The notes under the pieces are model-generated. The model had not been told where the DNA came from and made no database searches. It saw nothing but the letters and a program-made list of their open reading frames with translations. 15,311 nt of DNA from a virus (lineage: Duplodnaviria; Heunggongvirae; Uroviricota; Caudoviricetes). The DNA is taken from IMG/VR virus record IMGVR_UViG_2703718829_000001; one strand, written 5' to 3'. Positions 2,759 through 14,362 of the stretch are shown in pieces; positions within the stretch are counted from its first letter, which is position 1; each line of letters opens with the position of its first letter. The position numbers and the translations under genes are program-made.

Positions 2759-3130
2759 TTAATTATTGTAGTTTTGGAAGCCAGTAAGATCGCAAAATGA
2801 ATCAGTGTCATGTGCTGGGGAACGATGCTCTGCTTCGTCGGAGAAAATGTTGGATACCGGAGATTCCACTTTAACTTCCGGTGCTTCTTCAACATCTGAC
2901 TTAACTTCTTCGACCACTGGTTCAACTGCTGGAGATTCTTCTTTTGTTTCTTCAATGACGATCTCAGGTTCTTTCATTGCTTCAACCAGAGACGGATCAA
3001 CTTCGTCGAATACCACTTTATCATCTGCGGTATATTTGTCTATAATGAAAAAATGGTCAGAAATATAGCTAACGTCGCCAGCATATTCTAACAAAAAAGC
3101 GCCCACCAGAGGCGCTTTTGTTTTATCCAT
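2759..3130 (-). CDS. Highly acidic hypothetical protein (Glu/Asp/Pro/Val-rich C-terminal half); start codon uncertain
   Basis: ORF ends with TAA at 2759-2761. Candidate starts are TTG at 3160 (overlaps the upstream gene by 38 nt, no Shine-Dalgarno), ATG at 3130 (Shine-Dalgarno-like GGTGGA but no spacer) and ATG at 2977 (72 aa). The terminator hairpin at 3099-3115 lies inside the two longer versions, so the real protein may be the short form. Translation is strongly acidic (EEPEIVIEETKEESPAVEPVVEEVKSDVEEAPEVKVE...). Confidence 0.4.
   Translation of the reverse strand: MDKTKAPLVGAFLLEYAGDVSYISDHFFIIDKYTADDKVVFDEVDPSLVEAMKEPEIVIEETKEESPAVEPVVEEVKSDVEEAPEVKVESPVSNIFSDEAEHRSPAHDTDSFCDLTGFQNYNN
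3093..3116 (-). terminator. Intrinsic terminator downstream of the peptidase M15 gene
   Basis: On the minus strand: AGCGCC-ucuggug-GGCGCU stem-loop (3099-3116) followed by UUUUU (3093-3097), starting 7 nt after the stop at 3123. An A-run on the other side makes it formally bidirectional. Confidence 0.55.
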
Positions 3131-3476
3131 TCCACCGTGATTTTTTTGATCTGGAATCAATATGCGTAAAGGTTTTATATTTTCCTAAGCCGTATTGAGT
3201 AGGATATTTCCCATCAAGATAAGCATGAACAATATCAGGTGAGACACCCTTGATAACAATGTCAGCCGCACGGCCTCGAACGTGATAGCTGTTGGTTGCA
3301 CCGCCTACATTCTTGTTATGAGTCGGGCAACGGTTGCCACTGTTAATAATTACTGGTTTCCCGAAGTGTTCGCGTACATCCTCAAGAATCACCAGTAATT
3401 CAGCGTCGATTGTATCATAATCACATTTTCCGCATTTACATTTAAATTCCTTGCGAGAAAAATGCTTACTTAACAT
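3123..3476 (-). CDS. Peptidase M15 family protein (zinc D-Ala-D-Ala carboxypeptidase-like); putative endolysin or cell-wall hydrolase
   Basis: 117-aa ORF with ATG at 3476 preceded by TAAGGGGGTAAT. The translation FSRKEFKCKCGKC...GKPVIINSGNRCPTHNKNVGGATNSYHVRGRAADIV matches the small peptidase M15 (YcbK/DUF882-like) pattern SG.R....N...GG...S.H..G.A.D. Confidence 0.75.
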   Translation of the reverse strand: MLSKHFSRKEFKCKCGKCDYDTIDAELLVILEDVREHFGKPVIINSGNRCPTHNKNVGGATNSYHVRGRAADIVIKGVSPDIVHAYLDGKYPTQYGLGKYKTFTHIDSRSKKSRWNG

Positions 3477-3485
3477 ATTACCCCC

Positions 3486-3833
3486 TTAGATCATTTCGAA
3501 GATATAACCAATAAAGCGCATACCCTTGATATAATAAGGAGCAGTGCCTACACACACCGCGCGTGCATCACCCAGACAGTTAAAGCTATAAGGATTAACT
3601 ACATCGACTTCTTGTCCTACACGAAAACGATATTTAGGACGTTTAGCCAATGTAGCGACACAAAACACGGTCCCTTTTTCATGATCGCGGATACATTCTT
3701 TATATTGTTTATGTTTAACTCTCTTCGCCTCAAAATCATGTGTCATAGATTCTGGGCTAATGCCATTAATAAAAATACCGGAAAGCTGATCGACCGGATA
3801 AGTAGGAAATTCAGTGAAAATATTTTTAGCCAT
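3486..3833 (-). CDS. Hypothetical protein (115 aa)
   Basis: ATG at 3833 with a GGGGG Shine-Dalgarno 7 nt upstream; TAA at 3486-3488 sits next to the Shine-Dalgarno of the following gene. No family recognised. Confidence 0.7.
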   Translation of the reverse strand: MAKNIFTEFPTYPVDQLSGIFINGISPESMTHDFEAKRVKHKQYKECIRDHEKGTVFCVATLAKRPKYRFRVGQEVDVVNPYSFNCLGDARAVCVGTAPYYIKGMRFIGYIFEMI

Positions 3834-3836
3834 GTT

Positions 3837-3864
3837 ATACCCCCATAAGTTTCTATGAGGGTAT
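3837..3864 (-). promoter_or_regulatory. RNA stem-loop burying the Shine-Dalgarno of the 115-aa gene (copy 2 of a recurring motif)
   Basis: Minus-strand RNA reads AUACCCUCAUA-gaaacu-UAUGGGGGUAU, an 11-bp stem with one G-U wobble. The 3' arm contains the GGGGG Shine-Dalgarno, with the AUG at 3833 three nt past the stem. It starts 8 nt after the upstream stop at 3872. The same core recurs at 10590-10627. Confidence 0.45.
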
Positions 3865-3871
3865 TTATGGA

Positions 3872-4745: not shown

Positions 4746-5024
4746 TTATTTTTGTTTGAGTATGTCGAGAACTTGGTCAAATTTGGCGTCCATCGCAACC
4801 ACTTTCTTTTCTATACCGTGAAGGGTTTGTTCCATGCGATAAACTCTCTCGGCGATCTGGTCATGGTTACTTTGCATTGTTTCAAACTTCTGATTAAACA
4901 ATGCATCATTGGACTCTAATTTCGACAATCTATTTTCTGTGGCTAATTGATTTCGGTGGAGTCTCCAAAGCCCACCACAAATTAAGGCGATAACACCGAT
5001 ACCGCCATATATAATTTCAGTCAT
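4746..5024 (-). CDS. Small membrane protein: N-terminal transmembrane helix plus coiled coil (92 aa)
   Basis: ATG at 5024 with a GGGGGCG Shine-Dalgarno. The N-terminus (IIYGGIGVIALICGGLW) is hydrophobic, followed by a charged heptad-like segment. Topology resembles an i-spanin, holin/antiholin or superinfection-exclusion protein; function is not assignable from sequence. Confidence 0.7.
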   Translation of the reverse strand: MTEIIYGGIGVIALICGGLWRLHRNQLATENRLSKLESNDALFNQKFETMQSNHDQIAERVYRMEQTLHGIEKKVVAMDAKFDQVLDILKQK

Positions 5025-5065
5025 TACGCCCCCGATATTTTTATAATTTCATGGCAGAATTATTT

Positions 5066-5110
5066 AGATAAAAATAATCCCGCCTAACTCAAAAGAATTA
5101 AGCGGGATTA
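5066..5110 (-). terminator. Possible terminator or attenuator after the central tail fibre gene
   Basis: 8-bp inverted repeat AATCCCGC (5076-5083) / GCGGGATT (5102-5109) with an 18-nt loop. On the minus strand it is followed by AUUUUUAUCU, 19 nt after the stop at 5128. The long loop lowers confidence. Confidence 0.35.
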
Positions 5111-8100: not shown

Positions 8101-8904
8101 GCGTACTTGCTTACGTACTTTCAGGAATGAATCAACGTTAATGTTTTCAATTGGTACTGATAGACCATATTTTTCATTTGTTAGGTAATGGAAAATCTGG
8201 TCCACGCCGTTAGTGCTAGCCTCAATAGCATTGGTTTCGAGGTTACGGATTTTTAAGCCCATAACATCGACCGCTACCTGGCTATTAGGCTGGAGAATAT
8301 CAACACCAGCAGCCAAAGATTTGTCATCACGACGTAAAACAATACACATGGTCGCAATGCCGTTACCCTGATACCGATCATCCCAATCAGCGCCCAAATG
8401 ATGTTTAGCAAGATCTAATGCAGTGTTAGGATTTTTACCCGTGCGAAACTCGACTTCTAACACTTTGCGATATTCGTCTTTAATGTTTCCTTTATCGAGA
8501 ATACCATCACGAATTGTCATATTCTGACTAATGAGAACGTTTTTATTATCGATGTGCAGTGCTTTAAAGTGATCGATCTCACCTTCGGCAATAGCAAAAA
8601 TTTGTACCAGTTTGTTATTTTCACGCTGTGAAATTGCTTTGTAAACGCAGATTGCACCAGTTCGGGTAGTACCGAAAAGAACGGGTAATACTGTCTTAGG
8701 ATCGTTTGATGTTCCTAGTGTCACCGCATTATCCGGGCTTTGTACTTTCGGTGTTTTTGGTGCGCCTACAGTGGAAGCAATCAAGGTCATTGCACCAGCA
8801 GCCATACCGATAGCGACTGCGGTCATAACAGAAAATGTTGCAGCAGCAGCCATCCCAGCAGACGCACCAGCAATAACCGCGCCTACCAATACTTCAAATC
8901 CCAT
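5128..8904 (-). CDS. Central tail fibre / tip attachment protein J-like (host specificity protein) with a gpI-like N-terminal segment
   Basis: 1258-aa ORF with ATG at 8904 and a GGGGGTG Shine-Dalgarno. The N-terminal ~100 aa are a Gly/Ala-rich hydrophobic stretch followed by APKTPKVQSPDN...VLPVLFGTTRTG, resembling the C-terminal half of lambda tail assembly protein I as recalled. The C-terminal ~120 aa (…DDHPFDRQIIVPAISF…DMPAGHGPVTLTFEV…KKAATGISVS) closely resemble the C-terminus of lambda gpJ as recalled. Internal coiled-coil and IGTAQI-type repeats are present. Confidence 0.88.
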   Translation of the reverse strand: MGFEVLVGAVIAGASAGMAAAATFSVMTAVAIGMAAGAMTLIASTVGAPKTPKVQSPDNAVTLGTSNDPKTVLPVLFGTTRTGAICVYKAISQRENNKLVQIFAIAEGEIDHFKALHIDNKNVLISQNMTIRDGILDKGNIKDEYRKVLEVEFRTGKNPNTALDLAKHHLGADWDDRYQGNGIATMCIVLRRDDKSLAAGVDILQPNSQVAVDVMGLKIRNLETNAIEASTNGVDQIFHYLTNEKYGLSVPIENINVDSFLKVRKQVRQMDLHSNGACDPNASFKENLTSLMQTFGGVMFESFGRITLKLDAPDIVKHTFNEDNIMMGKVSLKTGGTNGYFNTINAMYQEPSIDYSEQMLRYPADAENDATIRQDGRIIAKDIEYRFVKSKAQIDKLASIERNKSRITQVISFMTTDAFTAEVWDVISVTYDELKLNNSLWRITAIDRSIDSGIAGMMTITATEYNSQVYTDLNYAATPDNRPTGLPDSMTVQKPTNFRIKATGETIHGKNVTLTWDAPEDFNRYGFQIDYRVSGSPNWIKLGQTSQQIFNINALAKDRSYDYRVCAFGIIARSEWVELVNQNPEVTYELPTPVIRIKNQGSSPGTFEGNDLIIEWENQQQLDVVINGETNKFSDLFEAYIIKVTNKAGKSIQYRTRDPESWTYTLDMNQFNGLSRELTVEVSVKGYNNSESAPARLVAINPQHKPMKGFSARGGFNTAFVSWADDVEHDYAGSIIQYATDNTFSDARAVTTNSVSHTSFDLADGDYYIRGAHYDIFGMDDAVWSEPYFMQMKSTISWDDQDKEALEDLIGLQDRLDETIADAIAQAGANADAKIDAMHKQITTETGKTVQASADTLKSLIATSEQASSTKIDQVKAELKGDITNEVSASATTLKQAIATSEAASASKIDQVRVEMDGKIAGVNQEADVKIDALKGTINSKYNLAVNADGRVAGIHMSATNDPAQPTRIIFTADKIAVAPQNGSEVCPFGIEDNKVYLDNAMIRNAAIGTAQISDASITTAKIGTAQINGAHIQHAQIGTGHIIDGSIDNAKIGNYIQSYNWNGNDGWYIGKDGTCHFRHANIRGHLVADSGEMNNVTINSSCRILGMLDANQVRGDFVKAIGRRFPHWDENPSLGYPGYPQGTITVRIEDDHPFDRQIIVPAISFGGLNAREGSNNNTYYDNCRLIVRKNGAELYNRAYGRQTGLYSAVIDMPAGHGPVTLTFEVSSSAINNWTPSTWISDLSVIVTKKAATGISVS
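5819..5888. repeat. Short periodic repeat inside the fibre gene (TAATCTGGGCTGTGCC(G/A)ATT, two copies about 48 nt apart)
   Basis: Near-identical 20-mers at 5819-5838 and 5867-5886. They encode the repeated (A)QI(G/S)(T/D)A-type peptide units (IGTAQI...) in the fibre shaft region. Confidence 0.45.
6171..6350. repeat. Degenerate ~105-nt tandem repeat (two copies) inside the fibre gene
   Basis: The blocks at ~6171-6240 and ~6276-6350 share the core CTCACTGGTAGCAAT and flanking similarity. The protein shows a matching 35-aa repeat (ASADTLKSLIATSEQASSTKIDQVKAELKGDI / ASATTLKQAIATSEAASASKIDQVRVEMDGKI). Confidence 0.5.
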
Positions 8905-9323
8905 TATTCACCCCCGAATCTATAAACTTGTTCATAGTCAATGTCTGAAACAGGAATGGTCATCCAGATACCATCTTCTTCAACGAGGCCATAACCGGAA
9001 TAATGAGGAACTACGGAATAATATTTGCGGTTTCCTAATTTGTGGGCTGTGACCAGTAAGTCGCCGTCCTGTAAGTCATCAGTGACTAATTTGAAATGTT
9101 TCTTAATTGGTTGAAGGATATTTGAATACCCGCTTAATTCTTTGCAGATTTTCAAGCCTTCTTCTTTAGTTGAATATTTTTTATAAAGAGAATTATATAG
9201 GTCAGTACCAGCGAGAATATCGATGATCTTACATGCAATGAGATTGCAATCATTCTCGCCTTGAACGAACTCCTGACCTATTAAAGAATTGATATAATCG
9301 GTGATAAGCCTAGTTTTTAGCAT
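8904..9323 (-). CDS. Minor tail protein, gpK-like with NlpC/P60-type motif (about 140 aa)
   Basis: Start chosen at ATG 9323 (MLKTRL...) with a GGAGGT Shine-Dalgarno 6 nt upstream. The longer ORF-track version (start 9479) would overlap the upstream gene by 110 nt. NDCNLIACKII ... DGDLLV ... H motifs resemble the C-terminal NlpC/P60 half of lambda gpK as recalled. The stop overlaps the fibre ATG (TAATG). Confidence 0.6.
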   Translation of the reverse strand: MLKTRLITDYINSLIGQEFVQGENDCNLIACKIIDILAGTDLYNSLYKKYSTKEEGLKICKELSGYSNILQPIKKHFKLVTDDLQDGDLLVTAHKLGNRKYYSVVPHYSGYGLVEEDGIWMTIPVSDIDYEQVYRFGGE

Positions 9324-9369
9324 GTTGAATACCTCCATGCAGTTATTTACTAGGCTTAGGGAGAAGGGA

Positions 9370-10023
9370 TTATTTCTTCGATGAATGCCACTTGCTTTCT
9401 GAGTTCCACTTCCCGGCACGGGAGAAGAATAGATCGTTCTCGTTTCCAACATAGGATCGGTGGATACCATCGGAGGCATGACTACGAGCGTTTTTATCTA
9501 GAACTTCCCAGATACTATTAAGCTGAAATTCTGATTCGTTTTTACACTCATCATCTTCATGTTCGATGTTAATCCCGATGGAATCGACTACCCCACGGAA
9601 AACAGGGTAAGTGGTTTCAACCTTGCCCGTGTTAGGGTTCAGGAACACCATTTCGATTTTCACATCAGATTTATCGAATTGCTTGTTTCGAATCAGGGTA
9701 ATGTATTCCTCGCGAACGTTAGAAACGGTTACGTTAATCCCGTTGTTGTTGATCTCCTTCTCTTCGGTATTCGATGAGATTTGAAGAAAATCACCCGTTG
9801 CGAGATATGTAAATCCGTTATAGTCCAAATCGAAATACCCATCTGTAAGCCGTAGAACGTCCCCTGACGCTGTTATCACTTCGATAATGTGAAACATCGA
9901 TCCAGTAGAAAAAAGCTGCGGTAGCGTCAATCTAGACACGTTCTGACCTGTCTGGTCGTTGTAGACCTCGATGAAGTCCAGATTAGTGCATAGTTTGCTG
10001 AATGATTCCTGAATAGTTGCCAT
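9370..10023 (-). CDS. Minor tail protein (gpL-like position), about 217 aa
   Basis: Start chosen at ATG 10023 (MATIQESF...), which overlaps the stop of the upstream gene (ATGTAA-type coupling). The ORF-track N-terminal extension to 10077 is rejected. Assignment rests mainly on position between the M-like and K-like genes; the Cys content is low. Confidence 0.55.
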   Translation of the reverse strand: MATIQESFSKLCTNLDFIEVYNDQTGQNVSRLTLPQLFSTGSMFHIIEVITASGDVLRLTDGYFDLDYNGFTYLATGDFLQISSNTEEKEINNNGINVTVSNVREEYITLIRNKQFDKSDVKIEMVFLNPNTGKVETTYPVFRGVVDSIGINIEHEDDECKNESEFQLNSIWEVLDKNARSHASDGIHRSYVGNENDLFFSRAGKWNSESKWHSSKK

Positions 10024-10583
10024 TATACATTCTCCACTAATTCGAATTTCATCTTGCCAATCTGGGCGATCTTCCAATCGATATTTTCAGTTTTGAGAAC
10101 AAATTCGCCTTCTACGTTTTGATACTTGATCACCTCACCCGCCAGGACGTTCTGACGCAAGTTAGGGAAGAGTTTCATTTCACCACCTGATTTCACGTCT
10201 TCGGTGATCGTGTAGATTTTCTTGTGGTTCTCAAACTGGATGACAGTTCCCGCTTTCAGTGTTCCGGTGAAGTTGGAGAGTCTTACCTTGCGTCCACCGC
10301 GAGCAGTACCAGCAGCAGCCGTAACCATCTGGCGTACATCACCTGTATATTTTGAAAAGTAAGACAGTGGCACACTGAAAGGACGACCAAAAAGGTGACG
10401 TGCTACAAATTCTTTTACTTCGTTAATATCCTGAGCCATGAAATTAGCTGTAAATTCTGCTTCATAAAAATGAATGCCAGTAAAGCGACGTTGAAATTTA
10501 CCAGAAATAGATTGTGCCTTGAAGAAAGGCTGTTTTGATTTAAGAGTAAAATCTGTGATTTTAATATTCTTGGATTTGAACAT
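10023..10583 (-). CDS. Minor tail protein (distal tail / gpM position), 186 aa
   Basis: ATG at 10583 with a GGGGG Shine-Dalgarno 6 nt upstream, first gene after the tape measure gene. Assignment by synteny; no sequence motif recognised. Confidence 0.6.
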   Translation of the reverse strand: MFKSKNIKITDFTLKSKQPFFKAQSISGKFQRRFTGIHFYEAEFTANFMAQDINEVKEFVARHLFGRPFSVPLSYFSKYTGDVRQMVTAAAGTARGGRKVRLSNFTGTLKAGTVIQFENHKKIYTITEDVKSGGEMKLFPNLRQNVLAGEVIKYQNVEGEFVLKTENIDWKIAQIGKMKFELVENV

Positions 10584-10589
10584 AGAAAA

Positions 10590-10627
10590 GCCCCCATAGT
10601 TTTATGATTATTTATCACTATGAGGGC
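10590..10627 (-). promoter_or_regulatory. RNA stem-loop burying the Shine-Dalgarno of the first minor tail gene (copy 1 of a recurring motif)
   Basis: Minus-strand RNA reads GCCCUCAUAGU-(16-nt loop)-ACUAUGGGGGC, an 11-bp stem with one G-U wobble. It starts 6 nt after the tape measure stop (10634). The 3' arm carries GGGGG, and the AUG at 10583 lies 6 nt beyond. Flanked by A4 and U4. Confidence 0.45.
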
Positions 10628-10633
10628 TTTTAA

Positions 10634-13063
10634 TTACATCTTACGGCGCTGTGCGTCTTCTACCGCCTGAGCAACTAACTTAGCGTGACGTTTGATAGCA
10701 TCCATGACCATCTTGTCTGAGCTATTAACGTTGCCGTTAATGTTCAAAGGCGCATTAACTTCAATCGGCTGAGAGTTGCCACCGCCTGATTTTTGAGCAG
10801 CAAGGAAGTCTTTCAAATCACCGTTAGTACGCTGATCAACTACTCGTTCACCCTTATCAAGCAACCATGTACCCTCACGAGGGATGTTATCAATACCATC
10901 ATGAGCCATACCGCTAACGTTAGTAGACTTGATGTTTGCGATGCTCCCCATGTTCTGAGAAACAGCCAATGCAGCAGCCGCGATTTTTTGACCTGTGGTT
11001 ACGTTGGTCGGATCGTTCCATGCATCGGTAGCAGCCGTCCACATGTTCACCGTCGCTTGTCCAATGGAGAATGCTTTATGAGCAGTGAAAGCCATCTGCA
11101 TAGCTTTAGTGTTTTCCTGCCCGAAGAGAGTCATTGCAGCAGCAAAACCGCCATACATATCATCGGCTATTGACTGTCGAGCATCAGCATATTTCTTCTC
11201 AATTGCAGCCATTCGTTTTTGATGGTTTTCATTGAGTTTTTCTAATGCTTCCATCCGTTTAGCCGGATCATTAATACCGTCAATCTTGAGTTTATCGGTT
11301 TTATAATCTTGTTCCGCTTCCGATTTCTCTTTATCGATTGCATTAAATTTAGCAAACGGGTTATTTGAATCCTGATAGTCTAAGCTATTGGTCAACTGAT
11401 TGGTTTTAAAACCATCCATTCCCTGTAAAGAATTTTCAATCTGAGAATAGTTTTGCTCGGTATCGTTCACACGACGCATATATTCTTCGTAGGAGATAGC
11501 TTTACCATCAAGTAACCGTTTATGGCTTTCTAGCTCGTTGTCCCTTATTTGTTGCAATTGTGTTAAGGCATTCAAAGCATCAACCGGATCAGCACCTAAA
11601 ACCATTTTGTATACGTTTTCAGTATTCTGATCGATTAAGGATTGGCGTTTCGCGGCTGCGTCTTGCTGAGAGATTAAGCCCAGATCTAAAGCAGTGTCCA
11701 AATCTTTCAAGCTGGCTTCTAACTGCTTGTTCTGAGAAGCAATAGACGCGGCGACCTGCCCTTGCAATTTAACATCAAGTGCATTCAGACGCTTGATTGC
11801 ATCCTCACGTTCTTTCTGTGCTTTTTCTGCGGCTTCCTTAGCCTTTTTAGCTGCCTCTTCCGCTTTCTTGCGTGCTTCTTCTTCGGCTTTCTTCTCATTG
11901 CCAGACTTACCCAATGATTCTGGTCTTACTGGTTTATTTGGTATAGTCAAATCACGGTTAGGATCTGCCTTGCGAGTTAGATGTTCCCCGTTATCGACAA
12001 CAATCAGAGAGCCATTTTTCTTATAAGAATCACCAAAACGTTTCTTAAATCCTTCAACATCAAAGCCAGCAGTACGAGGATCGACACCAGCACCACGGAT
12101 CGCGGCCTTTTCCCAATCTGCCAGATTATTCCAACGCTTTTCTTTATTGTACTTGTCAATAATTTTTTGAGCGTCTTTATGGTTGGCGTTAAGAATACCG
12201 CCAGTTGCGGTCTTGCCTTCTTTATTCAGTCGATCTAATGCCCTGAATAGAGAACTCTTTTCCCAATCAATATTAAACCAGTCAAATAACCAGTTTAAAC
12301 TATCAACCAGCGGACCAGTAATGGTCATGCCGACCCCTTTCAGGTTATTTTCCAGCTTATTGATATTTTGAGAAAATTTATCATATTTTTTAGCGTTTTC
12401 TTCGGTGACGTTAACAGATTGATTCTGAATAGCGATCATCGCCTCTTGAGCACTATTATATTTCTCAAGCTGGCTGGTCATATGGCTTGAATCACTGGCT
12501 AAAGATTCCATCATGAACTTGATTTCAGCCATTGATTTTCCGGCTTTCTTCATGTCATAGAACACTTGGATCGCCGCTTTCATACCACCTTGCGGATCTG
12601 TCATGAAGTGAGCATAGTTTTCTAACTTAAGACCAACCGATTCTAAGTCATCAGCAATACCACCACCATTAGCCCACGCATCACCCATTTTATCTAAGGT
12701 GTCTTTGTTGATATCGCCAAATTTTTCAACTGTTAGGCCAGTGCCAGAAAATTCCTTTTCTAGTCTTTGAAGGGATTCAATCGAGAGTCCGGTCGCCTTA
12801 GATACTTCTGAATACTGTTTAACGTATTCCGCGCCAGCTTTAGCGGCTGCAACCACTGCGGTCGCAACTAAGCCGATACCACCAGCAGCCAAACCAGCAG
12901 AGCCAGCGATCCCACGAAGAGATCCAGTCAGACCAGATAAGCCACCACCAAAATCAATATTACTTGCCTTTTCAGACAAACGATCGAGAAGGTCGGCGGC
13001 TTCATTGGTACTTCTCCTTAGACCTTTATTATCCCCTTCTATTGTTACTATATGTCTTGTCAT
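10634..13063 (-). CDS. Tail tape measure protein (809 aa)
   Basis: Large ORF directly downstream of the chaperone pair, with ATG at 13063. It has a Gly-rich hydrophobic N-terminal segment and a long Lys/Glu/Ala-rich coiled coil (KKAEEEARKKAEEAAKKAKEAAEKAQKERED), typical of tape measure proteins. By the rough 0.15 nm per residue rule the tail would be about 120 nm. Confidence 0.88.
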   Translation of the reverse strand: MTRHIVTIEGDNKGLRRSTNEAADLLDRLSEKASNIDFGGGLSGLTGSLRGIAGSAGLAAGGIGLVATAVVAAAKAGAEYVKQYSEVSKATGLSIESLQRLEKEFSGTGLTVEKFGDINKDTLDKMGDAWANGGGIADDLESVGLKLENYAHFMTDPQGGMKAAIQVFYDMKKAGKSMAEIKFMMESLASDSSHMTSQLEKYNSAQEAMIAIQNQSVNVTEENAKKYDKFSQNINKLENNLKGVGMTITGPLVDSLNWLFDWFNIDWEKSSLFRALDRLNKEGKTATGGILNANHKDAQKIIDKYNKEKRWNNLADWEKAAIRGAGVDPRTAGFDVEGFKKRFGDSYKKNGSLIVVDNGEHLTRKADPNRDLTIPNKPVRPESLGKSGNEKKAEEEARKKAEEAAKKAKEAAEKAQKEREDAIKRLNALDVKLQGQVAASIASQNKQLEASLKDLDTALDLGLISQQDAAAKRQSLIDQNTENVYKMVLGADPVDALNALTQLQQIRDNELESHKRLLDGKAISYEEYMRRVNDTEQNYSQIENSLQGMDGFKTNQLTNSLDYQDSNNPFAKFNAIDKEKSEAEQDYKTDKLKIDGINDPAKRMEALEKLNENHQKRMAAIEKKYADARQSIADDMYGGFAAAMTLFGQENTKAMQMAFTAHKAFSIGQATVNMWTAATDAWNDPTNVTTGQKIAAAALAVSQNMGSIANIKSTNVSGMAHDGIDNIPREGTWLLDKGERVVDQRTNGDLKDFLAAQKSGGGNSQPIEVNAPLNINGNVNSSDKMVMDAIKRHAKLVAQAVEDAQRRKM

Positions 13064-13446: not shown

Positions 13447-13755
13447 TTACTTTACCTCGTTTTCAATTACTGCCGGATCTTGCATCAATGATGCTTGAGC
13501 AACCAAACCGATTAATTCACTTCGAACGTTAGTATACAGTGCCTTAACTTGTTCCATAGATTCAAATACTGGCTTGCCGTCTTCATCTTCAATACAACGA
13601 AGAATAGAACGTTCATCACGGTCTTCTTTATCAGTATTGAAAACATGTTCATTAAATTCTTTTACTGACATAGGGCGAGCATAGAAAGTGAATCCACCGA
13701 TGGTCAAAGATTCGCGTTTCGGAGAGAGTGCGGCTAACATTTCGTTAATATTCAT
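13447..13755 (-). CDS. Tail assembly chaperone, gpG-like (102 aa)
   Basis: ATG at 13755 with a strong AGAGGAAA Shine-Dalgarno. Small acidic protein immediately after the tube gene and its terminator, the canonical position of the G chaperone. Confidence 0.6.
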   Translation of the reverse strand: MNINEMLAALSPKRESLTIGGFTFYARPMSVKEFNEHVFNTDKEDRDERSILRCIEDEDGKPVFESMEQVKALYTNVRSELIGLVAQASLMQDPAVIENEVK

Positions 13756-13800
13756 TATTGTTTCCTCTTAAGTTAATTCGATATGTTTATTTAGAATTGG

Positions 13801-13829
13801 AAACAAAAAAGCCACCCCGAAGGATGGCT
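13801..13829 (-). terminator. Intrinsic terminator after the major tail tube gene
   Basis: Minus-strand RNA reads GCCAUCC-UUCG-GGGUGGC followed by UUUUUUGUUU, starting 8 nt after the stop at 13838. Textbook hairpin with a UUCG tetraloop and a U-run. Confidence 0.75.
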
Positions 13830-13837
13830 AGATAATA

Positions 13838-14308
13838 TTAGAGTTTCTGGAAAACAGCTTGTTTAACCGGAGCACCATCTACTACAAAGGTGAAGGTACG
13901 GCCTACTACAGCATCCTCACCACCAGTCATGGTAGTTTTAGACAGGAAGCCGTTATAAGCGATATGTACACCAGATTTTTTCGTAGCATCGATGTAGTAA
14001 GCAATTTTAAGCTGTACGCGCTTACCGTCTTCGGTTGCTTTAATCAGTTTTTCGTGTACTTCGTTACCCGGCATGTAGTTGATCGAAAGTTCGATATCCG
14101 GTACAGACATACGACCAACCAGCTTACGGTTATAAGCACCAGAGAAGTTAGGAACATCGATCGTAGAACGTTCTACACCAGTTTCCGGGAACGCTGCGCA
14201 TTCTGGGATTTCCAGATAGGTTTCAGCATCAAGGTCTTTATTGCTTACGTCTTCTTGCAGAAACAGACCAACGAGGCCACCAGAGAAAATATCAAATTTA
14301 GTAGTCAT
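13838..14308 (-). CDS. Major tail tube protein (gpV-like tube domain, no Ig-like C-terminal extension)
   Basis: 156-aa ORF with ATG at 14308 and an AAGGAAAAG Shine-Dalgarno. It lies upstream of the chaperone pair and tape measure gene and is followed by a strong terminator. Segments NYMPGNEV / KRVQLKIAYY / VGRTFTFVVDG resemble the lambda gpV tube domain as recalled. Confidence 0.75.
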   Translation of the reverse strand: MTTKFDIFSGGLVGLFLQEDVSNKDLDAETYLEIPECAAFPETGVERSTIDVPNFSGAYNRKLVGRMSVPDIELSINYMPGNEVHEKLIKATEDGKRVQLKIAYYIDATKKSGVHIAYNGFLSKTTMTGGEDAVVGRTFTFVVDGAPVKQAVFQKL

Positions 14309-14362
14309 TATTCTTTTCCTTCTATTTTAAACAATAGGGCACATACCCGTAATTCTATTTAT

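Follow-up and report, generated by a model that had tools for sequence, protein, structure and literature searches.

We describe a hairpin at positions 10590-10627 of a stretch of 15,311 nucleotides (nt) of DNA from a tailed phage (IMG/VR record IMGVR_UViG_2703718829_000001, Caudoviricetes; this whole stretch is called the window below), where it separates the tape measure gene from the gene of the distal tail protein (Dit). This hairpin is probably a promoter-gated lock on a ribosome-binding site, of the type known from genes e and 49 of phage T4, which would double at this junction as a leaky terminator: its 3' arm contains the Shine-Dalgarno (SD) sequence of the Dit gene, its 5' arm the complementary anti-SD sequence, and its loop a box of the T4 late promoter type that is invariant among relatives. 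An initial annotation had described the hairpin with exact coordinates and anatomy, as a possible partial terminator or attenuator and translational coupler that would lower the dose of the distal tail proteins, but had missed both the invariant GATAAATA box in the loop and the same box lying flush with the 5' arm of a second hairpin (3862-3869). Given a promoter box in the loop, the reading shifts from a dose-lowering attenuator to a lock on read-through RNA coupled to a dedicated downstream promoter, and the direction in which the dose of the distal tail proteins would change, down or up, cannot be told from the sequence.

The hairpin before the distal tail protein gene

All genes around 10590-10627 are on the minus strand according to the list of open reading frames (ORFs), and every feature of the window given here is on that strand. 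The tape measure gene (10634-13063, 809 aa; PHROG tape measure families, E-value 8e-65) ends with a UAA stop codon at 10634-10636, and the Dit gene (10023-10583, 186 aa; PHROG distal tail E-value 2e-16, with a weak Pfam DTP-pb9 match) starts with an AUG at 10581-10583 and encodes an N-terminus, MFKSK, conserved among homologues. The minus-strand RNA from 10636 to 10581 reads UAA-UU-AAAAGCCCUCAUAGU-GAUAAAUAAUCAUAAA-ACUAUGGGGGCUUUU-CU-AUG, in which the 5' arm AAAAGCCCUCAUAGU (10617-10631) carries the anti-SD CCCUC (10622-10626) with a U.G wobble at 10623, the 16-nt loop GAUAAAUAAUCAUAAA occupies 10601-10616, and the 3' arm ACUAUGGGGGCUUUU (10586-10600) carries the SD GGGGG (10591-10595), 7 nt before the AUG, and a U4 tract (10586-10589). 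The core stem of 11 bp (10590-10600 with 10617-10627), one of them the U.G pair, is extended by the A4 and U4 flanks to a helix of 15 bp. In its 81-nt context the hairpin has a minimum free energy (MFE) of -23.3 kcal/mol (z = -3.98), a single one of 200 shuffled sequences folding equally well, and it ranks second-longest among the inverted repeats of the window. Rfam 15 gave no match at gathering score anywhere in the window.

Many E. coli contigs encode an identical Dit protein, as found by exact-protein look-up, and the region is matched in 56 of 5,426 complete E. coli genomes with 88-98% identity. The locus of NZ_CP157095.1 (L011 in our numbering of loci) contains a complete element of about 37 kb, inserted in ycdX and with a serine recombinase gene at its end. 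Relatives with Dit proteins 32-92% identical were gathered from Salmonella genomes, Logan assemblies and IMG/VR; a profile scan of genome contigs with the Dit alignment found no relative, and these were obtained instead through exact-protein look-ups and from viral contigs. In a phage collection, megablast with positions 9000-12000 gave no match, and tblastn with Dit gave DCP80 as sole match, at 43% (43.5%) identity.

Using these relatives, we could follow the hairpin across lineages. As a MAFFT alignment of the hairpin was out of structural register, we aligned 12 distinct sense-strand sequences with a covariance model instead; being fitted to the model, this alignment leans towards pairing, and 173 of its 178 cells (97%) are paired, against 41-59% when the 3' partners are slid. 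Four of the 15 pairs are changed on both sides among these 12 relatives, compensatory changes are visible in the raw sequences too, and two independent C-to-U changes produce G.U pairs, a pairing that sense-strand RNA alone tolerates. The U.G of the window corresponds to C-G in most relatives, so that the wobble is a lineage variant and not a feature common to this hairpin and the second one, at 3837-3864. In the loop, ATAAATA is invariant in all 12, the next five nucleotides vary, and an A invariably occupies the sixth position behind the box. The hairpin, which every E. coli and Salmonella relative retains with compensatory changes, is more than a chance structure.

The tape measure/Dit junction reads AAAAGCCCCCAUAGU[G/C]AUAAAUAAUCAUAAAACUAUGGGGGCUUUU(U)CUAUG in the E. 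coli elements, AAAAGACCCCCUAGUUGAUAAAUACAUCAAAAACUAGGGGGUCUUUUUCUAUG in the Salmonella elements, GCCUCC.../...GGAGGC in L023 and AAAUACCC(C/U)CUAGUU.../...AACUAGGGGGUAUUUUU in L013 and L022. Distant relatives (Dit 32-41% identical) have at the same junction a canonical terminator, followed by (T/C)ATAAATA and then by a free SD, and the Dit hairpin is a compressed form of this order: a terminator-like hairpin encloses the box and has the SD as part of its 3' arm. The nested layout is also found with unrelated stems, in L056, L060/61, L067, L069 and L016/17; the nested hairpins of L060/61 and L016/17 lack a U-tract, and the common denominator of nested hairpins therefore seems to be occlusion of the ribosome site together with an internal box. 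In the box-less lineages (L014/58/59 and DCP80) the SD is free, and no lineage examined has a sequestered SD without a box inside or beside the hairpin. As a separate observation, the C5/G5 stem runs differ by one base in some IMG/VR copies (L024, L027, L045 and L049; 7951-7998), which creates a bulge and represents either homopolymer sequencing error or slippage tuning stem stability.

Fold predictions were compared for a long RNA and for an RNA beginning at the predicted start. The SD of Dit is unpaired with a probability of 0.000 in the long RNA, which rises to 0.54 in the short one; for the large terminase gene of L011, where the short RNA begins just after CCUUC, the values are 0.004 and 0.55; and for a holin-like gene of the window, described below, 0.000 and 0.02. 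We also collected 145 clustered contexts of box, SD and AUG from all loci; in 17 of them, against 2.5 +/- 1.5 in shuffles, the SD is part of a contiguous helix of 10 bp or more whose other strand lies 5' of the predicted start.

Boxes of the T4 late type and further gated hairpins

The T4 late promoter consists of an 8-bp box, TATAAATA, at -13 to -6, without a -35 element, and variants at -13 are common (PMC2988020). The box in the Dit loop, GATAAATA (10609-10616), matches TATAAATA at 7 of 8 positions and deviates at -13; by the T4 rule, transcription is predicted to start at the A at about 10603. Three hairpins of the window have this geometry, the sixth nucleotide after a TATAAATA-type box lying 3' of the anti-SD strand, and all of them are stable and pair an SD or a start codon (z-scores from -3.4 to -4.0).

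In its distribution, the box resembles a promoter element. L011 has 30 occurrences of TAAATA, of which 22 fall in intergenic DNA (11.6% of the sequence), and all 14 ATAAATA and all seven TATAAATA are intergenic and point to the next gene, mostly 25-45 nt before its start. TAAATA is found in sense orientation at -60 to -13 of 14 out of 37 L011 genes, against 2.87 +/- 1.56 in dinucleotide shuffles (0 of 2000 reach 14), and in antisense orientation before one. The late region of L011 has 18 on the gene strand and none on the other, the window nine and none, and divergent intergenic regions of L011 contain outward-facing boxes. We also considered that the box might be a sigma-70 element, but rejected this: no properly spaced -35 element precedes the boxes of the Dit, holin-like and terminase genes, and TAAATA lacks the T at -7.

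The second gated hairpin of the window, AUACCCUCAUAG-AAAC-UUAUGGGGGUAU (3837-3864; -17.8 kcal/mol, z = -3.37), exists exactly as the initial annotation had placed it and contains the SD GGGGG (3840-3844) of a 115-aa gene (3486-3833, AUG at 3831-3833). This gene is holin-like by position, directly upstream of an M15 endolysin gene (3123-3476). The box CATAAATA (3862-3869) lies flush with the anti-SD CCCUC (3857-3861), which would occupy -5 to -1, and the start is predicted at an A at about 3856, inside the 5' arm. Salmonella relatives keep the hairpin, with U-A replacing U.G. In the third one (2713-2754; -13.1 kcal/mol, z = -3.59), an exact TATAAATA (2747-2754) overlaps the 5' arm AUAGUAGUG (2741-2749), which pairs with CACUACUAU (2713-2721); this 3' arm covers the first two bases of the AUG (2712-2714) of an endonuclease-like gene (1716-2714), so that the start codon, and not the SD, is paired. 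A compensatory variant, AAUAGUG/CACUAUU, is present in L013. By their layout, the hairpins at 3837-3864 and 2713-2749 are both flush variants of the device.

Other hairpins of this kind lie outside the window. An 87-bp divergent region of L011 (20346-20432), between a 200-aa gene and the large terminase gene, has two outward-facing ATAAATA boxes, and on its terminase side AAUAAAUA-CCUUCAU...AUGAGGGU hides the SD, with 12 nt identical to the leader of T4 gene e (AUAAAUACCUUC). The NUMOD3 endonuclease gene of L005 and relatives has its own nested hairpin, AAAGCCCUCAA[UAAAUA...]UUGAGGGCUUU, with the box in the loop (-23.5 kcal/mol, z = -4.2).

Elsewhere in the window, TAAATA boxes lie 53 nt upstream of the tail tube gene 13838-14308 (box at 14356-14361) and 26 nt upstream of the DUF6950 gene start used in the gene calls of relatives (box at 9344-9349). 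The window ORFs 8904-9479 and 9370-10077 overlap by about 100 nt, and in the relatives' calls the DUF6950 gene (139 aa) begins at about 9323, 26 nt beyond that box, so that the start of the longer ORF is probably unused. The order terminator, box, SD is found in sequence at two junctions: after the tail tube gene (13788-13829), with a terminator AGCCAUCCUUCGGGGUGGCU-UUUUUU (13829-13810), TAAATA (13788-13793) and the SD and AUG of gene 13447-13755, and after the tail tip gene (5061-5110), with a 16-bp terminator (5110-5075), TAAATA (5061-5066) and the SD and AUG of gene 4746-5024. In the window and in L011 (13026-50000), TAAATA or TATAAATA boxes precede most transcription units, and several of the exact boxes of L011 take the form GTTATAAATA and surround, in its early region, about 1.4 kb of non-coding DNA (16180-17626).

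Comparison with T4 and alternative explanations

In T4, long early transcripts form a structure and are poorly translated, and late transcripts start inside that structure and are translated; the same mechanism applies to soc, I-TevI, segB and mobE (PMC3014915 section 29; PMC2988022 section 12). We read the T4 leaders directly. That of gene e is UAUAAAUA-CCUUC-UAUAAAUA-CUUAGGAGGUAUUAUG, in which CCUUC pairs with GGAGG, the SD in the 3' arm, and which has one late box flush with the anti-SD arm and a second in the loop; that of gene 49, which encodes endonuclease VII, is AAUAAAUA-CCCUUAUC...GGUAAGGG...AUG. The Dit hairpin shares with gene e the SD in the 3' arm, the anti-SD in the 5' arm and a box in the loop, as the second TATAAATA of e. 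The flush box of e, TATAAATA-CCUUC, has its counterparts in CATAAATA-CCCUC at 3857-3869 and in AATAAATA-CCUUC before the terminase gene, and the hairpin at 3837-3864, like e, which encodes lysozyme, precedes a gene of the lysis cassette. For gene 49, soc, I-TevI, segB and mobE, the likeness is that the late promoter is so placed that late RNA lacks the 5' strand of the ribosome-site hairpin. The gene 49 layout AATAAATA-CCCUUAU resembles that of the flush box at 3862-3869, and AAUAAAUACCCUUAU... of gene 49 is close to AUAAAUACCCUCAU at 3855-3868. As with the endonuclease genes of T4, the endonuclease genes of the element carry the device (2713-2754 in the window; the NUMOD3 gene of L005). At the level of sequence, the geometry of the three window hairpins is identical to that of e and 49, and together they reproduce both T4 layouts.

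There are also differences. T4 is a virulent myovirus with gp55, gp33 and gp45, and the element, about 37 kb long, is an integrated prophage of siphovirus type in which no gp55 is recognisable; accordingly, transcription by a gp55-type polymerase (with gp33 and gp45) is a T4 feature that the element was not found to share. The long RNAs of T4 are early transcripts, whereas the Dit hairpin sits between two late structural genes, and its 16-nt loop and terminator-like A4/U4 flanks distinguish it from that of e. Unlike gene 49 and the T4 homing endonuclease genes, the element has sites that are predicted from sequence, and at 2713-2749 it is the start codon, not the SD, that is paired. Compared with ordinary terminator-promoter junctions, such as those in plain order in the same phage at 13829-13788 and 5110-5061, the hairpin at 10586-10631 has the GC-rich stem, the U-tract and the upstream A-tract, but its box is nested in the loop, its 3' arm doubles as SD and its loop is atypically long. 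It also resembles translational coupling of the MS2 coat/replicase type, in that the downstream SD is closed by sequence beside the upstream stop codon; coupling is here a prediction, and the internal promoter-like box would, unlike in MS2, offer an open SD without upstream translation.

On the T4-type reading, which we favour, RNA reading through from the upstream promoters of the tube, chaperone and tape measure transcript would pair the anti-SD CCCUC with the SD GGGGG, so that Dit would be closed to free ribosomes, and the GC-rich stem with its U4-U5 tract would probably halt part of these transcripts. An RNA begun about 6 nt after GATAAATA would start just before the 3' arm, could not form the hairpin, and would expose its ribosome site on a leader of about 20 nt. 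Expression of the distal tail genes would then come mainly from their own promoter and weakly from read-through RNA; alternatively, read-through RNA would serve only if the helix is melted by a ribosome that terminates at the tape measure stop codon. Partial termination and ribosome-driven coupling are likely additional functions of the hairpin, as its flanks and position suggest.

Several points weigh against this reading. Neither L011 nor the other loci yielded a gp55-like late sigma factor in tblastn with T4 gp55, in Pfam and PHROGs searches with ten early-region proteins or in phmmer against PDB sequences with three candidates; the search for a late factor or regulator gave just a small terminase and a Rha/Ant-type protein, and a gp55-type reader of the box could possibly be highly diverged or be provided in trans. 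Promoter use and termination are deduced from sequence alone, and the reason for shielding a late gene, Dit, from another late transcript is not obvious. The loop box departs from the consensus at -13 (G or C), its conservation could partly serve a small apical helix (GAU...AUC), and the intergenic DNA is AT-rich. In the short RNA of the holin-like gene, the SD is still paired, in a weak alternative fold of -5.5 kcal/mol. Finally, a cruder MFE test, in which the SD pairs with any base before the start, was weakly enriched (41 vs 29.9, z 2.5); this test was judged too permissive and was replaced by the contiguous-helix criterion.

As an alternative, the hairpin could be just a partial intrinsic terminator or attenuator and translational coupler, stopping part of the tape measure transcripts and melted by ribosomes that finish the tape measure and reinitiate at Dit, with the TAAATA of the loop as incidental AT-rich sequence. 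We consider this possible, with perhaps a modest chance of being the whole explanation, and the initial annotation is partly supported in this respect: the structure is a ribosome-site hairpin, and a role as terminator or coupler is plausible. The GC-rich stem is followed by a U-tract (UUUUCU after GGGGGC), which is kept as U4-U5 in all close relatives and as U5 in many, and preceded by an A-tract that is also conserved in the E. coli and Salmonella clade; the upstream stop codon is separated by 2 nt from the extended helix (by 2-8 nt in relatives) and by 6 nt from the GC core, a distance that a terminating ribosome can span, as in coupling hairpins; and distant relatives have canonical terminators at the homologous junction. 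By contrast, the short loop (about 3-8 nt) and long U-rich tail (~7-8 nt) of terminators are lacking, as the loop has 16 nt, against 4-7 nt in the phage's own terminators, and four U precede a C, and a terminator scan of the window that lists 22 other hairpins does not report this one. Nor does this explanation account for a loop in which ATAAATA is invariant while the stem covaries, for nested hairpins without a U-tract, such as those of L060/61 and L016/17, for the U-tract missing from the copies at 3837-3864 and before the terminase gene, or for one nested hairpin that has no co-directional upstream gene to couple to, yet hides its SD. It is improbable that the hairpin is instead an element of RNA processing or stability, shielding the tape measure mRNA at its 3' end or offering a site for RNase III or, in its AU-rich loop, RNase E. 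Stable intercistronic hairpins of T4-like phages are an analogue, a stable and conserved hairpin just after a stop codon would suit such a role, and in the DCP80 module a GGGGCUUCGGCCCC hairpin occupies the same place and leaves the SD free; this explanation leaves aside, however, why the SD is always inside the 3' arm in nested lineages, why the same box points towards many genes from 25-45 nt before them, also in divergent regions that would otherwise lack promoters, and why T4 e and 49 match.

A role at the DNA level, with the 15-bp inverted repeat controlling the loop promoter either as the operator of a dimeric regulator or by forming a cruciform, appears very unlikely to us. The repeat does bracket a promoter-like box, and I-TevI of T4 represses its own late promoter through an overlapping operator (PMC2988022), but the arms change sequence freely between lineages with complementarity kept, the 3' arm always carries the SD, and three C-to-U or G-to-A changes give G.U pairs tolerated in sense RNA only and A.C mismatches in DNA or antisense RNA. 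The initial annotation had further proposed, from arms shared with the copy at 3837-3864, that the hairpin is a reused element, and a mobile repeat of the repetitive extragenic palindrome (REP) or miniature inverted-repeat transposable element (MITE) kind, copied to several intergenic sites, would be the corresponding explanation; we give it hardly any credence. CCCTCATAG and TATGGGGG are indeed common to both copies, and the NUMOD3 endonuclease gene of relatives has AAAGCCCUCAA...UUGAGGGCUUU. The shared arms amount, however, to just 9 and 8 nt, five of them dictated by the GGGGG SD and its complement, so that identity is confined to the SD/anti-SD core plus 3-4 nt, and loops, flanks and box position differ. 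The copies diverge independently, the Dit stem being GACCCCCUAGUU in the Salmonella elements where the other copy stays CCCUCAUAG. The search for further copies that the annotation had suggested found more hairpins of the same kind, but the 9-mer with at most one mismatch is not enriched (3 vs 2.4 in shuffles), all copies lie directly before start codons, and L011 has no copy of extended identity outside gene starts.

The element family and its possible helpers

L011 encodes the small and large terminase subunits, the portal, a fused protease-capsid protein, a T4-like fibre, a siphovirus tail module and lysis proteins, and it also carries genes for a UvsW-like helicase and homing-endonuclease-like proteins. 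Its span 13026-50200 thus holds a full set of virion and lysis genes, and no recognisable repressor, replication module or late sigma factor. Genes with a T4 flavour recur in the family: a UvsW-like helicase and a Gp34-like fibre in L011, UvsY, endonuclease VII and a Gp38-like adhesin in relatives, and endonuclease-like genes of the GIY-YIG, NUMOD3 and DUF723 types. Elements that are otherwise near-identical differ in whether homing-endonuclease-like genes (NUMOD3, DUF723/CapR) stand between a given pair of tail or lysis genes (sites at L005 11236-11291, L006 and L008 11289-12059, and L005 18002-19039). In Salmonella-type relatives, a near-perfect sigma-70 promoter (TTGACA-17-TATAAT) precedes the uvsY-like gene (L018 17620-17682; L022 17670-17730), so that at least some genes of the element are built for the host polymerase, unlike the TAAATA-driven ones.

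The family, whose members measure about 35-38 kb and are found in E. coli and Salmonella, relies for nearly all of its wiring on T4-type late boxes and e/49-type hairpin locks, has no recognisable gp55, repressor or replication module, and carries uvsW, uvsY, endonuclease VII, gp34/gp38-like fibre genes and homing endonucleases of T4 style. A tentative idea, which we regard as rather doubtful, is that these elements are helper-dependent in spite of their full virion gene set and are switched on by a superinfecting phage that supplies gp55. T-even phages may be the obvious candidate helpers, and phages of the ViI-like group also carry gp55 and gp33 genes, as found in the literature. The hairpins would then serve as safety locks, preventing translation of the holin, terminase, endonuclease and tail genes from read-through RNA in the lysogen.

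DCP80 (PQ671644.1, an Escherichia phage of 141 kb labelled Gaprivervirus; our loci L012, L085 and L088) starts with a 26-kb module of head, tail and lysis genes that is related to the element (Dit 43.5% identical) and has GTTATAAATA promoters. Beyond this module it has T4-like genes (rIIA, gp46/47, spackle, rpbA), several of them duplicated and rIIA inverted. The record gives the impression that a T-even phage and a member of this family were co-assembled in scrambled form, which is compatible with their co-propagation. The gp38-like adhesin of relatives showed no close link to T-even phages, its best matches being Stx phages at 45%. In the literature on DCP80, on satellites using T4 late promoters and on prophages with TATAAATA promoters, we found no description of this element family.

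The hairpin locks described here would be a further example of an already known T4 device, in an integrated element. If the reading is true, the Dit copy would be a compact three-in-one design, a terminator, a promoter in its loop and a lock on a ribosome site, and would predict primary 5' ends at about 10603, together with 3856 and 2741 for the two flush hairpins. The dosage of the distal tail proteins would be uncoupled from that of the tube and tape measure proteins. Which polymerase factor reads the boxes of an element without gp55 bears on its dependence on T4-like helpers. If the promoter-gated reading holds, a device held to be a hallmark of virulent T4-type phages, in which an 8-bp late box lies within or next to a hairpin that conceals the ribosome site, would also work in a widespread integrated element of siphovirus type in E. 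coli and Salmonella.

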